A stretch of DNA of 18,148 nucleotides, from IMG/VR virus record IMGVR_UViG_2703718826_000002. One strand, written 5' to 3'. Positions 7,182-14,460 of this stretch are shown here, in pieces. The notes under the pieces were generated by a model, which saw nothing but the letters and a program-made list of their open reading frames with translations, made no database searches and was not told the origin of the DNA. How positions within the stretch are numbered: the first letter of the stretch is position 1; the number at the start of each line of letters is the position of its first letter. This DNA comes from a virus. Taxonomy: Duplodnaviria > Heunggongvirae > Uroviricota > Caudoviricetes. The translations under genes were made by a program, and so were the position numbers.

Positions 7182-7185
7182 AAAT

Positions 7186-7232
7186 ACCTCGTGTACTCGT
7201 TATGTGTACACAATTATAAACTTCACAGACAT
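7186..7232 (-). promoter_or_regulatory. phd-doc promoter/operator: -10 TATAAT (7213-7218, minus strand) with palindromes TGTGTACACA (7203-7212) and GTGTAC (7191-7196)
   Basis: Palindromic GTGTAC-containing sites between the -10 and the phd RBS (GAGG), consistent with Phd/Doc autoregulation. Confidence 0.5.
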
Positions 7233-7296
7233 AAAGCACCAGCACTTTGCGGCTTAACAAACCTCTAGGCAGGTCATTCGTAGCCTAATGTCCGAA

Positions 7297-7325
7297 CTGC
7301 TAAAGCATCCAAGTTGCTGTAGAAT
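7297..7325 (+). promoter_or_regulatory. candidate hsdM promoter with extended -10 (TGT-TAGAAT, 7317-7325)
   Basis: TGnTAGAAT about 30 nt upstream of the hsdM ATG; weak -35. Confidence 0.3.
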
Positions 7326-7357
7326 CACCGCCAATTACATAAGCCTGAAATAAGTGG

Positions 7358-8920
7358 ATGAAAATGACAAGTATTCAACAACGTGCAGAGCTTCATCGTC
7401 AAATCTGGCAAATTGCTAACGATGTCAGAGGTTCGGTCGATGGATGGGATTTTAAGCAATACGTTCTGGGCGCGCTTTTCTACCGTTTTATCAGCGAAAA
7501 TTTTTCCAGCTATATTGAAGCCGGTGATGACAGCATCTGTTATGCGAAACTGGATGACAGCGTAATTACTGATGACATTAAAGACGATGCCATCAAAACC
7601 AAAGGCTACTTCATCTACCCAAGTCAGCTTTTCTGCAACGTAGCTGCGAAAGCAAATACCAATGACAGACTGAACGCAGATTTAAACAGCATCTTCGTTG
7701 CTATCGAAAGTTCTGCTTACGGCTACCCTTCAGAAGCAGACATCAAAGGTTTGTTTGCTGATTTCGATACCACCAGTAACCGCCTGGGTAACACCGTTAA
7801 AGATAAAAATGCCCGCCTGGCTGCGGTTCTGAAAGGGGTTGAAGGGTTAAAACTTGGTGACTTCAACGAACATCAGATTGACCTGTTCGGTGATGCCTAT
7901 GAGTTCCTGATTTCTAACTATGCGGCAAATGCCGGTAAGTCAGGCGGTGAGTTCTTTACACCGCAGCACGTCTCCAAGCTGATTGCACAACTGGCTATGC
8001 ACGGGCAGACCAACGTTAACAAAATCTACGACCCGGCAGCGGGTTCCGGCTCACTGTTGTTGCAGGCTAAAAAGCAGTTTGATAACCATATCATCGAAGA
8101 AGGCTTTTTTGGTCAGGAAATCAACCATACAACCTATAACCTGGCACGTATGAACATGTTTTTGCACAACATCAACTACGACAAGTTTGATATCAAGCTG
8201 GGTAATACACTGACTGAGCCACACTTCAGAGATGAAAAACCGTTTGATGCCATCGTTTCTAACCCGCCGTATTCGGTGAAATGGATTGGCAGCGATGACC
8301 CGACGCTGATTAACGATGAACGTTTTGCCCCGGCTGGCGTTCTGGCCCCCAAATCCAAAGCTGACTTCGCCTTTGTACTACATGCGCTGAACTATCTTTC
8401 TGCCAAAGGTCGTGCTGCGATTGTTTGCTTCCCGGGTATTTTTTACCGTGGCGGCGCGGAGCAGAAAATCCGTCAGTATCTGGTTGATAATAACTATGTC
8501 GAAACCGTGATTTCACTGGCACCGAATCTGTTCTTTGGCACCACTATTGCCGTCAATATTCTGGTGCTGTCTAAACATAAAACGGATACCAAAGTTCAGT
8601 TTATTGATGCCAGCGAATTGTTCAAAAAAGAGACTAACAACAATATCCTGACCGATGCCCATATCGAACAGATTATGCAGGTATTTGCCGGCAAGGAAGA
8701 TGTTGCCCATCTGGCGAAATCTGTTGCGTTTGAGACTGTTGTCGCGAATGACTATAACCTGTCGGTGAGCAGTTATGTTGAAGCGAAAGATACTCGCGAA
8801 ATTATCGATATCGGTGAGCTGAATGCTGAGCTGAAAACCACGGTCAGCAAAATCGACCAGTTGCGCAAAGATATTGATGCGATTGTGGCTGAAATTGAAG
8901 GCTGCGAGGTGCAGAAATGA
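7358..8920 (+). CDS. hsdM: Type I restriction-modification system, methyltransferase subunit HsdM (Type IC, EcoR124-family)
   Basis: 520 aa; AdoMet motif [10 protein letters not shown] and N6-adenine motif NPPY (AIVSNPPYS); N-terminus matches recalled EcoR124I HsdM. Stop overlaps hsdS start (ATGA). Confidence 0.95.
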
Positions 8921-10152
8921 GCGAGATGAGTTATCTGGAAAAATTGCTGGATGGGGTTGAAGTTGAGTGGTTGCCATTGGGGGAAATAACCAAATATGAA
9001 CAGCCAACAAAGTATTTGGTAAAAGCAAAAGATTATCACGACACATATACCATACCGGTTCTTACTGCCGGAAAAACATTTATTCTTGGATACACAAATG
9101 AGACTCATGGTATTTATCAGGCATCAAAGGCACCTGTAATAATTTTTGATGATTTCACCACCGCTAATAAATGGGTGGATTTTGACTTTAAGGCAAAATC
9201 ATCGGCCATGAAAATGGTTACATCATGTGATGATAATAAAACCTTACTGAAATATGTTTACTATTGGCTCAATACATTACCAAGTGAATTCGCAGAGGGA
9301 GACCATAAACGCCAATGGATTAGTAATTATTCTCAAAAAAAAATCCCAATCCCCTGCCCGGATAATCCGGAAAAATCCCTCGCCATCCAGTCTGAAATCG
9401 TTCGGATTCTGGACAAATTTACTGCACTTACCGCTGAGCTTACCGCTGAGCTTACCGCTGAGCTTAACATGCGTAAAAAACAGTATAACTACTATCGCGA
9501 CCAGTTGTTGAGTTTTGATGAGGAGCAGGAAAAACCTATTTATCTGGAAAAATTGCTGGATGGGGTTGAGGTTGAGTGGTTGCCATTGGGGGAAATAACC
9601 AAATATGAACAGCCAACAAAGTATTTGGTAAAAGCAAAAGATTATCACGACACATATACCATACCGGTTCTTACTGCCGGAAAAACATTTATTCTTGGAT
9701 ACACAAATGAGACTCATGGTATTTATCAGGCATCAAAGGCACCTGTAATAATTTTTGATGATTTCACCACCGCTAATAAATGGGTGGATTTTGACTTTAA
9801 GGCAAAATCATCGGCCATGAAAATGGTTACATCATGTGATGATAATAAAACCTTACTGAAATATGTTTACTATTGGCTCAATACATTACCAAGTGAATTC
9901 GCAGAGGGAGACCATAAACGCCAATGGATTAGTAATTATTCTCAAAAAAAAATCCCAATCCCCTGCCCGGATAATCCGGAAAAATCCCTTGCCATCCAGT
10001 CTGAAATCGTGCGAATTCTGGACAAATTCGACACACTGACCAACTCCATCACCGAAGGTCTCCCGCGTGAAATCGAGTTGCGCCAGAAACAATACGAGTA
10101 CTATCGTGATTTACTGTTCAGTTTCCCAAAACCTGAAACAGCCAGTAATTAA
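8917..10152 (+). CDS. hsdS: Type I R-M specificity subunit HsdS (Type IC) with duplicated target-recognition domain and 3 x TAEL central repeat
   Basis: 411 aa; central region [16 protein letters not shown] and distal conserved region are homologous as expected, but the two TRDs are identical 163-aa segments. Confidence 0.9.
8931..9419 (+). repeat. direct repeat copy 1 (about 489 bp; hsdS TRD1)
   Basis: Near-identical to 9540-10028 (offset 609 bp) with only a few synonymous mismatches. Confidence 0.9.
9427..9462 (+). repeat. 3 x 12-bp tandem repeat CTTACCGCTGAG (TAEL x3) in the hsdS central conserved region
   Basis: Perfect tandem triplication; in Type IC systems the copy number sets the spacer length of the bipartite recognition site. 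Confidence 0.9.
9540..10028 (+). repeat. direct repeat copy 2 (about 489 bp; hsdS TRD2 position)
   Basis: Encodes the same 163 aa as copy 1. Confidence 0.9.
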
Positions 10153-10159
10153 TTGAGCA

Positions 10160-10273
10160 TTTTTACAGACCGGACCACCTTAACATCCGGTCAGTATATA
10201 GACTATTTTCTACACGCCGGAAGTCGCCCTTAACTCCCTTCCGGCCCTTGCCAGACGGCACAAAGGATGCGCT
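10160..10273 (+). promoter_or_regulatory. hsdS-hsdR intergenic region with two inverted repeats (GACCGGA...TCCGGTC; GCCGGAAG...CTTCCGGC); candidate hsdR promoter/regulatory region
   Basis: 121-bp gap, consistent with Type IC organisation in which hsdR has its own promoter; no strong sigma70 hexamers identified. Confidence 0.3.
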
Positions 10274-13556: not shown

Positions 13557-13583
13557 ATTTTCAGCTCCTGTGATTGATTGGAT

Positions 13584-13615
13584 ACATGCCGCGCCTTGCG
13601 GCATGTTTTTATTTT
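13584..13615 (+). terminator. rho-independent terminator (plus strand): 9-bp stem ACATGCCGC/GCGGCATGT, loop GCCTT, then TTTTATTTT
   Basis: Textbook hairpin plus U-tract; likely terminates hsdR or an antisense transcript. The same hairpin would sit in the 5' leader of the minus-strand peptide mRNA. Confidence 0.6.
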
Positions 13616-13638
13616 CACTTTCTCTGTTTTAAAAATCA

Positions 13639-13655
13639 AGATTTATTAGAGCAAT
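13639..13655 (-). promoter_or_regulatory. C1-type operator (ATTGCTCTAATAAATCT on minus strand, 16/17 to consensus)
   Basis: Best consensus match in the window; immediately follows the TAA stop of the HAD gene; promoter-like TTGATT-N17-GAAAAT downstream. Confidence 0.55.
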
Positions 13656-14161
13656 TATTGTTGATGGAGAAGCGCGTTTCCATACTCCCTGACCATTAAC
13701 GTAAGTACGCCGTGACTCCTGAAAACACGCGCCACTTCAATCTTATCTTCCAGCGCGAACGCAATTTTACTTAGACCAATTTTCTTCAGGAGATCAATCT
13801 TTGCTGGACCGTCATTTCTGTCATCGGTGGCAGGACGCATAGATAGCAAAGGCTCAGCCCCATTTGTTACGTGCTTACGCAACCAGGCTCGTGTTTTATC
13901 CCTGGCTATCTCACAGCGCCCGGTTACAAACCAGAGGGTGTAAATGCCGGACAACTGGCGCACCATATCAATAACTGGAGTGATGGGAGCATCAGTGTCA
14001 CAGGCAAGGTTAAACTCGTTCCAGTGCTCTGTTAATGCACCTTTGCCAGGTGGTGGAAGTAAATGCAGCCTGTCTTCCGTTGCCTCTGATATCGTCCCAT
14101 CAATATCTACTATGACGATGTACGGACGTTCCTGGTGTGCGTGTTTATTGAAAATACTCAA
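13655..14161 (-). CDS. HAD-superfamily phosphatase (polynucleotide 3'-phosphatase / nucleotidase-like)
   Basis: 168 aa; HAD motif I VDIDGT, later conserved T/S, K and DD motifs; TTG start with GGAGG SD. Confidence 0.6.
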   Translation of the reverse strand: MSIFNKHAHQERPYIVIVDIDGTISEATEDRLHLLPPPGKGALTEHWNEFNLACDTDAPITPVIDMVRQLSGIYTLWFVTGRCEIARDKTRAWLRKHVTNGAEPLLSMRPATDDRNDGPAKIDLLKKIGLSKIAFALEDKIEVARVFRSHGVLTLMVREYGNALLHQQ

Positions 14162-14180
14162 ATGCCCTCCTCATTGGACG

Positions 14181-14213
14181 AAAAAAATGCTGGTGGGAGC
14201 ACTCCACCAGCAT
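14181..14213 (-). terminator. rho-independent terminator (minus strand): 10-bp stem ATGCTGGTGG/CCACCAGCAT, 7-nt loop, then U6-7
   Basis: Perfect stem followed by a U-run in minus-strand sense, between the truncated orfA-like ORF and the HAD gene. Confidence 0.6.
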
Positions 14214-14233
14214 TAAAAGTGACACTGTAACTA

Positions 14234-14460
14234 TCAGCGAACGTAAATAGTGCCGCCGTTCTCTTTTTCCCATGCATCGCTACGTGCATAGCAAACATCG
14301 AGAAGTCTTCTTGCCGCAGTTTCCTCTACCCCAGCTTCGGCTTCGCGGAGAATACTGATGATCTGTTCGTCGGAAAAACGCTTCTTCATGGGGATGTCCT
14401 CATGTGGCTTATGAAGACATTACTAACATCGGGGTGTACTAATCAACGGGGAGCAGGTCA
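14234..14460 (-). mobile_element. IS3-family (IS407-like) left-end remnant: terminal repeat-like TGACCTGCTCCCC plus truncated orfA (51 codons)
   Basis: Minus strand from 14460 begins TGACCTGC...; ORF 14234-14389 starts MKKRFSDEQIISILREAEAG (typical IS3 OrfA N-terminus) with GAGGA SD, diverges, and stops after a conserved GG. Confidence 0.4.

Follow-up and report, generated by a model that had tools for sequence, protein, structure and literature searches.

Type IC restriction–modification (R-M) loci embedded in P1 DNA beside the toxin–antitoxin (TA) genes phd-doc were published in 1997 (Tyndall et al., Mol Microbiol 23:729, as cited (ref. 364) in the relevant passages of PMC12707154), and the phd-doc/hsd arrangement is annotated in the P1 GenBank record, NC_005856. 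The described representatives are EcoR124I and EcoR124II, of R124 and R124/3, and EcoDXXI, of pDXX1. Here we describe an hsdM-hsdS-hsdR locus in an 18,148-nucleotide stretch of the virus record IMGVR_UViG_2703718826_000002 (Caudoviricetes), hereafter called the window, whose positions are used throughout unless P1 or another locus is named. As in the loci of 1997, phd-doc homology lies directly upstream of hsdM and P1 homology directly downstream of hsdR. Comparison with known genomes indicates, with high confidence, that positions 7258–13465 are a classical enterobacterial Type IC cassette of the EcoR124/EcoDXXI kind at its usual site in P1-like elements, an old and widespread alternative allele, and that a nearby fragment of the insertion sequence (IS) ISSen4 is unrelated to it. 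An original prediction, made from the letters of the window, had presented the block as recent, IS-delivered cargo. Its observation is confirmed in part and its interpretation supported in part: the family and the accessory nature of the locus were right, whereas it was wrong about the borders, about the part played by the IS and about a recent origin.

Type IC operon of the EcoR124 family

The hsd block is, by sequence, an intact Type IC R-M operon of the EcoR124 family. HsdR matches the EcoR124I HsdR structure 2w00 with 2295 bits over residues 1–1038, and HsdM matches the EcoR124 HsdM structure 7bst_D with 1155 bits over residues 1–520, against 330 bits for the next-best HsdM structure. HsdS is identical to EcoR124II HsdS (7bst_A) over residues 1–174, diverges from it in the second half and is near-identical again in the C-terminal conserved region. 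Catalytic motifs are intact in HsdR (D151/E165/K167, Q179/Y183, GSGKT at 310 and DECH at 408) as well as in HsdM (NPPY at 302 and DPAAGSG at 225). The order hsdM-hsdS-hsdR is that of Type IC systems, with a 4-nt overlap between hsdM and hsdS (8917–8920) and a 121-bp gap before hsdR. Type IC membership is thus indicated by the kinship of HsdR and HsdM to EcoR124I, the architecture of HsdS, the gene order and the catalytic motifs alike, and the subunit matches together with the intact motifs bear out the EcoR124-family label that the original prediction had attached to the three genes, as do their Pfam matches (Table 1). Given the near-identity to EcoR124I/II, an HsdM2-HsdS complex would methylate adenines in a bipartite target, an HsdR2-M2-S complex would translocate and then cut unmodified incoming DNA, and the system would shield the bacterium carrying this plasmid prophage against other phages and plasmids.

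Cassette borders in the P1 backbone

The window is, judging by its alignments, a segment of a P1-like (Punavirus) IncY plasmid prophage. Syntenic blocks at 95–98% identity to P1 together make up 55% of its length, and the syntenic, highly identical parts include c1, pac, phd-doc and the pmg genes. At least 80% of the window is covered by each of more than 150 plasmid records, the records closest to it are of replicon type IncY, and Escherichia coli H15 plasmid A (NZ_CP010179.1) is 99.9% identical over 96% of the window.

In the P1 alignment, homology ends at 7257 (P1 87969, the humD stop codon), after phd and the Pphd promoter region, and restarts at 13466 (P1 84482), just upstream of the pmgT start. 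The DNA between these points has no P1 counterpart, which confirms that the hsd block is accessory relative to P1. It stands where P1 has 84483–87968, a 3.5-kb segment carrying humD, lxr, hot, upfO/N/M and pmgV/U/T, and by this alignment the cassette replaces the P1 segment and is not, as had been supposed, an insertion into it. The three hsd genes predicted earlier are real; the left edge of the non-P1 DNA, placed at 7182, moves to 7258 because P1 sequence runs to 7257. That hsd adjoins phd-doc stands, with 176 bp between phd and hsdM. The notes in the P1 record describe P1 87969–88647 as 98% identical to sequence upstream of the EcoDXXI hsd locus, and P1 84263–84482 as 96/98% identical to sequence downstream of EcoDXXI hsd and R124/3 hsdR. 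The break points of the cassette in the window are therefore those noted in NC_005856 for the flanks of the EcoDXXI and R124 hsd loci.

To the right of 13465 the DNA is again P1 backbone at ~96–98% identity. Since P1 homology runs from 13466 on, the small open reading frame (ORF) downstream of hsdR, the C1 operator Op88, pap and the 3′ end of pmgS belong to the backbone and not to the cargo. The predicted HAD phosphatase thus exists as a 168-aa ORF, but it is P1 pap, and the small ORF likewise loses its status as cargo. GC content shows a real but modest difference (43.4% in the cassette and 48.2% in the flanks, with 46.5% in the alternative segment of P1). A search for direct and inverted repeats found none at either 7258 or 13465 and turned up only repeats internal to hsdS.

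These borders bear directly on the proposal that recombination mediated by an IS3-family element recently brought in hsd, together with the small ORF and the phosphatase, and left a remnant of the IS at the right border. In favour of this, an IS3-family end is found no more than 1.1 kb from hsdR, the GC of the cassette is below that of its flanks and the lineage of the replicon is rich in IS (PMC7984374; see also the IS2 scar below). However, both borders directly abut P1 sequence, with neither a target-site duplication nor a second IS end, and P1 backbone is back for 861 bp beyond the right border before the ISSen4 piece begins, inside pmgS, which it interrupts. The small ORF, Op88, pap and the pmgS 3′ end all lie between hsdR and the IS, which therefore does not bound the block. 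Taken with the distribution of the ISSen4 junctions described in the next section, we regard an IS-mediated recent arrival as scarcely credible.

The ISSen4 fragment in pmgS

The IS3 remnant had been drawn at 14234–14460. IS3-family DNA is present near 14400, but its extent is smaller: 14234–14326 is pmgS, and the IS occupies only 14327–14460. This piece matches the left end of a complete ISSen4 (1,221 bp) in NZ_CP034659.1 with 100% identity and gives a weak Pfam match to HTH_Tnp_1; with 134 of the 1,221 bp present, the element lacks the complete set of both inverted repeats and orfAB. Some 740 bp of pmgS are missing between its 5′ and 3′ parts, and the fragment stands in their place.

A query spanning both ISSen4/pmgS junctions found no record covering them among 72,556 PLSDB plasmids and 5,426 complete RefSeq E. 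coli genomes, and its usual match was an intact pmgS (1,021-bp span). An intact relative, the IncY plasmid of strain ETEC1706 (NZ_CP122909.1, L005), has an uninterrupted pmgS of 1,263 bp with no IS there, and so does phage phi456 (L007). The cassette junctions, in contrast, occur in hundreds of records without ISSen4, so the IS junction is not common to other carriers of hsd. The window contains no ISSen4 right end, the partner for which the original prediction had suggested a search. The same hsd locus occupies the same position without an IS in L005, in phi456 and in the complete plasmid p1585m1_C (NZ_CP086387.1, L004), which is the very observation that had been named in advance as speaking against recent acquisition. 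With the IS inside pmgS, private to this replicon and without a partner end or flanking repeats, the ISSen4 end is, as far as these comparisons indicate, a separate, lineage-private lesion in pmgS, one of several decay events, with no visible part in bringing in hsd.

The full-length ISSen4 of NZ_CP034659.1 (locus L006, 514–1734) also lies in pmgS, 114 bp from the point hit in the window and with a 4-bp duplication of its own; the offset and the duplication rule it out as the same insertion event. A CRISPR interference screen found the genes from humD to pmgT, pap and pmgS all non-essential in P1 (PMC10695390), and pmgS seems to be dispensable and to have been struck more than once.

Spread and structural alleles of the cassette

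The phd-hsdM junction is found in 712 PLSDB records and the hsdR-Op88-pap junction in 258, the latter corresponding to ~40% of the records with that P1 side, as estimated from an evenly spaced sample of the ranking. The hsd genes of the window and L005 are 96.3–96.9% identical (3–4% differing) and the backbone is 96.3–99.2% identical. With junctions in hundreds of records and an hsd divergence like that of the backbone, acquisition of the cassette is not recent, and the proposed recency falls with it.

The segment from pmgT to humD is one of eight variable regions of P1-like phage-plasmids, ‘variable region 8’, in the passages of PMC9603915 that describe them. At this hotspot we identified three structural alleles, hereafter labelled A–C. 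Allele A is the arrangement of P1. Allele B, with a direct phd-hsd junction, is that of the window, phi456 and IncF plasmids. Allele C has the order phd-humD-hot-X-hsdMSR-pap and is carried by L005 and about 63 PLSDB records sharing the hot-X-hsdM junction; in L005 (locus 8754–9741), humD and hot, without lxr, and a 260-bp sequence, ‘X’, stand between phd and the end of the hsd cassette. In alleles B and C the left end of the cassette is the same within a few nucleotides, even though the adjoining backbone DNA differs. Among P1-like plasmids the cassette was presumably exchanged by homologous recombination in the conserved flanks.

The IncF plasmid pEC-81009 (L003, 6140–16280) is homologous to window positions 6091–13549 only. 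The shared part comprises a 3′ stub of pdcB, the genes pdcA, doc and phd, the three hsd genes and, at the far end, 84 bp of P1 DNA; IS5 is present ~0.9 kb upstream of these stubs, and IS1 follows directly downstream. The P1 stubs around hsd point to transfer from a P1-like context into IncF plasmids, and the cassette would thus have been carried from P1-like plasmids into IncF conjugative plasmids with P1 stubs on both sides. A more distant homologue is found in the Klebsiella phage-plasmid vB_KpnS_p4727 (93% amino acid identity in HsdM and 91% in HsdR), where a check of the hsd locus found none of phd, doc or pap nearby; linkage of hsd with phd-doc is therefore specific to the P1/IncF lineage.

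The polarity of the replacement may also be reversed, with phd-hsdMSR-pap ancestral in the P1 lineage and the humD-to-pmgT block of P1 a later replacement. This order of events would fit the IncF plasmids, whose hsd genes with P1 stubs on both sides were in a P1-like context before they spread, the equality of hsd and backbone divergence between the window and L005, and the GC content of P1’s own segment, which is below that of the backbone, as is noted for the hot-lxr region in passages of PMC9603915. It fits less well with the humD stop codon and 1–2 nt kept at the window junction, most simply read as the leftover of a humD-bearing ancestor, with the retention of humD and hot beside hsd in allele C, or with the Klebsiella operon, which exists independently of P1 DNA. 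On balance we consider the reversed polarity unlikely.

We therefore continue to favour an old, widespread cassette at the usual P1 site, although several observations weigh against this account or restrict it. Allele C is not explained by simple exchange through flank homology alone, and the exchange may have run either way, with hsd replacing humD-pmgT or the reverse. H15 plasmid A (L001 ~16967) and p1585m1_C (L004 ~11398) are without window positions 14329–14846 and without IS DNA there, and in both of these closest plasmids the pmgS deletion begins within 2 nt of the pmgS/ISSen4 junction of the window (14326–14328); an IS-bearing ancestor shared by the window and its two closest plasmids is possible. 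In the last 100 bp before hsdM, a consensus promoter scan detected no site. Finally, activity and specificity of the hsd system are extrapolated from near-identity to EcoR124I/II.

phd-doc and the region upstream of hsdM

The block 5004–7257, which includes doc and phd, is 98% identical to P1. The Pphd promoter is placed here from the P1 features at 6787–6815 of the P1 locus (L002), where L002 6831 corresponds to window 7257, and its sequence is conserved in the alignment. The consensus promoter scan gave 17 sites in all against 13.3 expected from shuffles, that is, not above the shuffle expectation. The phd-doc pair would kill plasmid-free segregants independently of the hsd system.

We considered whether phd-doc and hsd form a coupled ‘addiction plus defence’ module, co-regulated through the 176-bp divergent region and with R-M adding to stabilisation. 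The exact phd-hsdM junction is kept in all 712 records mentioned above, including IncF plasmids that retain little else of P1, and the –35 box of Pphd lies 16 bp from the cassette edge. Yet hitch-hiking of adjacent DNA explains the linkage, allele C puts 1 kb between phd and hsdM, and the Klebsiella homologue does without phd-doc. Post-segregational killing is a documented property of Type II systems; Type IC systems, in contrast, show restriction alleviation by assembly failure, establish easily in new hosts and are easily transferred or lost (PMC12707154); the description of the R-M system as ‘itself addictive’ is thus not established for Type I. Such a module is accordingly improbable. Slightly less probable again is that phd-doc and Type IC hsd are a selected two-part unit, travelling as one piece between phage-plasmids and conjugative plasmids with their divergent promoters coupled. 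The data show conserved physical linkage only, and it is unlikely that the TA state would influence hsd expression or that R-M would add to stabilisation.

A duplicated recognition domain in HsdS

HsdS has the parts of a Type IC specificity subunit, namely two target-recognition domains (TRDs), a central region with TAEL repeats and a distal conserved region, and its two recognition domains are copies of each other, encoded by an internal direct repeat of 489 bp at 99.2% identity (Table 1). The number of TAEL repeats sets the length of the spacer in the target, and the engineered EcoR124I_NT, with two TAEL repeats, recognises GAA N7 TTC (PMC3874165); the same target is given, in the excerpt that describes it, for the HsdS(delta50) truncation. 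As both half-sites in the window would be read by the same GAA-reading domain, and as three TAEL repeats are present, the target of the window hsdS is predicted to be palindromic, GAA N8 TTC. With a C-terminal TRD that is a copy of the N-terminal one, its specificity should differ from GAA N6/7 RTCG.

As in EcoR124I_NT, HsdS(delta50) and the naturally truncated NgoAV, a single kind of domain, the N-terminal one of EcoR124, would read both half-sites of the target of the window hsdS. As opposed to these, the window holds both copies in one polypeptide that is natural and of full length and has three TAEL repeats. Judged by sequence, the window hsdS is a naturally occurring, single-chain equivalent of the engineered EcoR124I_NT. 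The duplicated-domain allele is also present in p1585m1_C. The hsdS of H15 plasmid A (locus L001, 12165–12791) is half-size, encoding 208 aa with the N-terminal TRD and the distal conserved helix and missing 609 bp, the loss that recombination between the two copies of the repeat would produce. This half HsdS is similar to truncated HsdS mutants that function as homodimers, except that the helix it retains is the distal one and not the central one.

Gene order and state of the prophage

Compared with the annotated P1 record, the window reads coi and c1; a c4/icd/ant immunity module; pacB and remnants of pacA and lpa; pdcB, pdcA, doc and phd; hsdM, hsdS and hsdR; the small ORF, the C1 operator Op88 and pap; the broken pmgS; and pmgR, pmgQ, ppp, pmgP and pmgO. 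The coordinates of individual features are collected in Table 1. An immI-like module lies at 1309–3032, between c1 and pacB, where P1 has nothing; its presence in L005 makes it a feature of this P1 subgroup. An Rfam scan matched only C4 and isrK, both in this immunity region, and gave no match inside the hsd cassette or at the small ORF. The small ORF, of 28 aa, is conserved but unannotated in P1, and the promoter region upstream of it is that of Op88, under the control of C1; where hsd has taken the place of pmgT, a transcript starting at this promoter would enter the 3′ end of hsdR in the antisense direction.

Table 1 Features of the window, with the evidence for each
Feature	Position	Strand	Basis or remark
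KilAC antirepressor	1559–2455		Within immI-like module
icd-like	2452–2673		Within immI-like module
C4 antisense RNA	2728–2815		Within immI-like module
isrK-like RNA	2860–2938		Within immI-like module
doc, toxin gene	6580–6960	–	Pfam Fic/DOC; P1 annotation match; P1 backbone
phd, antitoxin gene	6960–7181	–	Pfam PhdYeFM_antitox; P1 identity; P1 backbone
Pphd promoter	7213–7241	–	–10 at 7213–7218, –35 at 7236–7241; predicted by coordinate transfer from P1 annotation
Type IC hsd cassette, DNA without P1 counterpart	7258–13465 (6,208 bp)	+	P1 alignment
hsdM, N6-adenine methyltransferase subunit, 520 aa	7358–8920	+	Pfam N6_Mtase, HsdM_N
hsdS, specificity subunit, 411 aa	8917–10152	+	Pfam Methylase_S; duplicated N-terminal target-recognition domain
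hsdS recognition-domain copy 1	8931–9419	+	Identical to EcoR124 N-terminal TRD, which reads GAA
Three 12-bp repeats encoding TAEL, central conserved region	9422–9466	+	Repeat-family detection; HsdS translation
hsdS recognition-domain copy 2	9540–10028	+	Duplicate of copy 1 where C-terminal TRD usually sits
hsdR, translocase/endonuclease subunit, 1038 aa	10274–13390	+	Pfam HSDR_N, SWI2_SNF2/ResIII, T1R_D3, EcoR124_C
28-aa hydrophobic small ORF (MNTAFKIIMAAIYFWLFSITFGSIVAHG)	13470–13556	–	Shine-Dalgarno-like AGGAG upstream; P1 backbone DNA upstream of P1’s pmgT start
Intrinsic-terminator-like hairpin and T-run downstream of hsdR	13584–13606	+	10-bp stem, 6 G-C pairs, TTTTATTTT tail; pattern match only
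C1 repressor operator OpmgT/Op88 (ATTGCTCTAATAAATCT)	13639–13655	–	P1 annotation L002 10492–10508; exact motif found in window
pap, P1 putative acid phosphatase, 168 aa	13655–14161	–	Pfam HAD_PNKP; ~96% identical to P1 pap
pmgS 3′ end, last ~31 codons	14234–14326	–	P1 homology 13466–14328; P1 pmgS annotation
ISSen4 (IS3 family) left-end fragment, 134 bp	14327–14460	–	Terminal inverted repeat and first ~21 orfA codons, in frame with pmgS 3′ end
pmgS 5′ part, 143-codon ORF	14461–14889	–	P1 alignment

The prophage is decayed, with an IS2 scar in pacB, a deletion across pacA and lpa and a broken pmgS. The scar, 81 bp at 4135–4215, consists of the left and right ends of IS2 fused at a 10-bp repeat (TTAAGTGATA) and flanked by the target duplication; H15 plasmid A has a full IS2 (+1,238 bp) at exactly this site. 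At ~5004–5006, 1,097 bp are gone relative to P1 and to the intact L005 (locus 5403–6499), a deletion that takes the 5′ part of pacA with the pac cleavage site, the LPpac promoter and the 3′ part of lpa. The window therefore lacks the intact pacA, pacB, pac site and lpa of a functional phage. As lpa is essential in P1 (PMC10695390), the element is probably unable to grow lytically or to package. This decay fits the published description of the lineage as an IS-rich, P1 phage-derived IncY plasmid (PMC7984374).

The ISSen4 fragment and the IS2 scar might instead be assembly artefacts produced by the collapse of multi-copy IS. Neither junction occurs in any complete plasmid or genome searched, and where the window has its joined IS2 ends, the complete plasmid closest to it carries a full IS2 at exactly that position. 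However, neither the 10-bp repeat that joins the IS2 ends nor the 2-bp overlap between ISSen4 and pmgS is long enough for k-mers to collapse, and the left break point in pmgS is common to two independently sequenced complete plasmids, which argues for a real lineage history. We give an artefactual origin of the two lesions little credence.

Comparison with known systems

Finding hsd beside phd-doc is a re-description of the result of 1997, a textbook example of restriction systems carried by mobile elements. The analysis is mainly of negative value, in that it removes the account of a recent IS-mediated insertion, fixes the true borders at 7258–13465 and returns the phosphatase and the small ORF to the phage backbone. 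The positive results are modest, comprising the three structural alleles that share one cassette end, a hint of transfer from P1-like to IncF plasmids and a natural hsdS with a duplicated recognition domain. The variable region of PMC9603915 is exactly the P1 segment replaced in the window; the passages concerned list it as variable and contain no mention of ‘hsd’, and beyond what these passages give, its nucleotide borders and three alleles are provided here.

Among individual replicons, pFec10 and H15 plasmid A are P1 phage-derived IncY plasmids with heat-resistance (TLPQC) cargo (PMC7984374). Similar to the window, H15 plasmid A is rich in IS and carries phd-doc and a Type I R-M system, the latter noted as a feature in the same paper; it differs in its full IS2 in pacB, its half-size hsdS and a larger pmgS deletion without IS DNA. 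Beyond cre, where P1 has the Type III res-mod genes, positions 74000–86054 of H15 plasmid A (L008, 1–12055) hold a TLPQC/LHR heat-resistance island (clpK, sHSP20-GI, yfdX, hdeD-GI, trx-GI, kefB-GI, psiE-GI and htpX) and several IS; the PLSDB gene table, which is incomplete, lists no res or mod gene for this region.

The closest described systems remain EcoR124I, EcoR124II and EcoDXXI, which have the same gene order and near-identical HsdR and HsdM. Their loci share the upstream phd-doc and downstream P1 flanks, with the same break points at P1 87969 and 84482, and EcoR124II HsdS has three TAEL repeats and an N-terminal TRD and conserved regions identical to those of the window. As opposed to EcoR124 and EcoDXXI, which reside in conjugative plasmids with stubs of P1, the cassette of the window has complete P1 flanks and belongs to a P1-like IncY plasmid, and, unlike in EcoR124, the C-terminal recognition domain of its HsdS is a copy of the N-terminal one.

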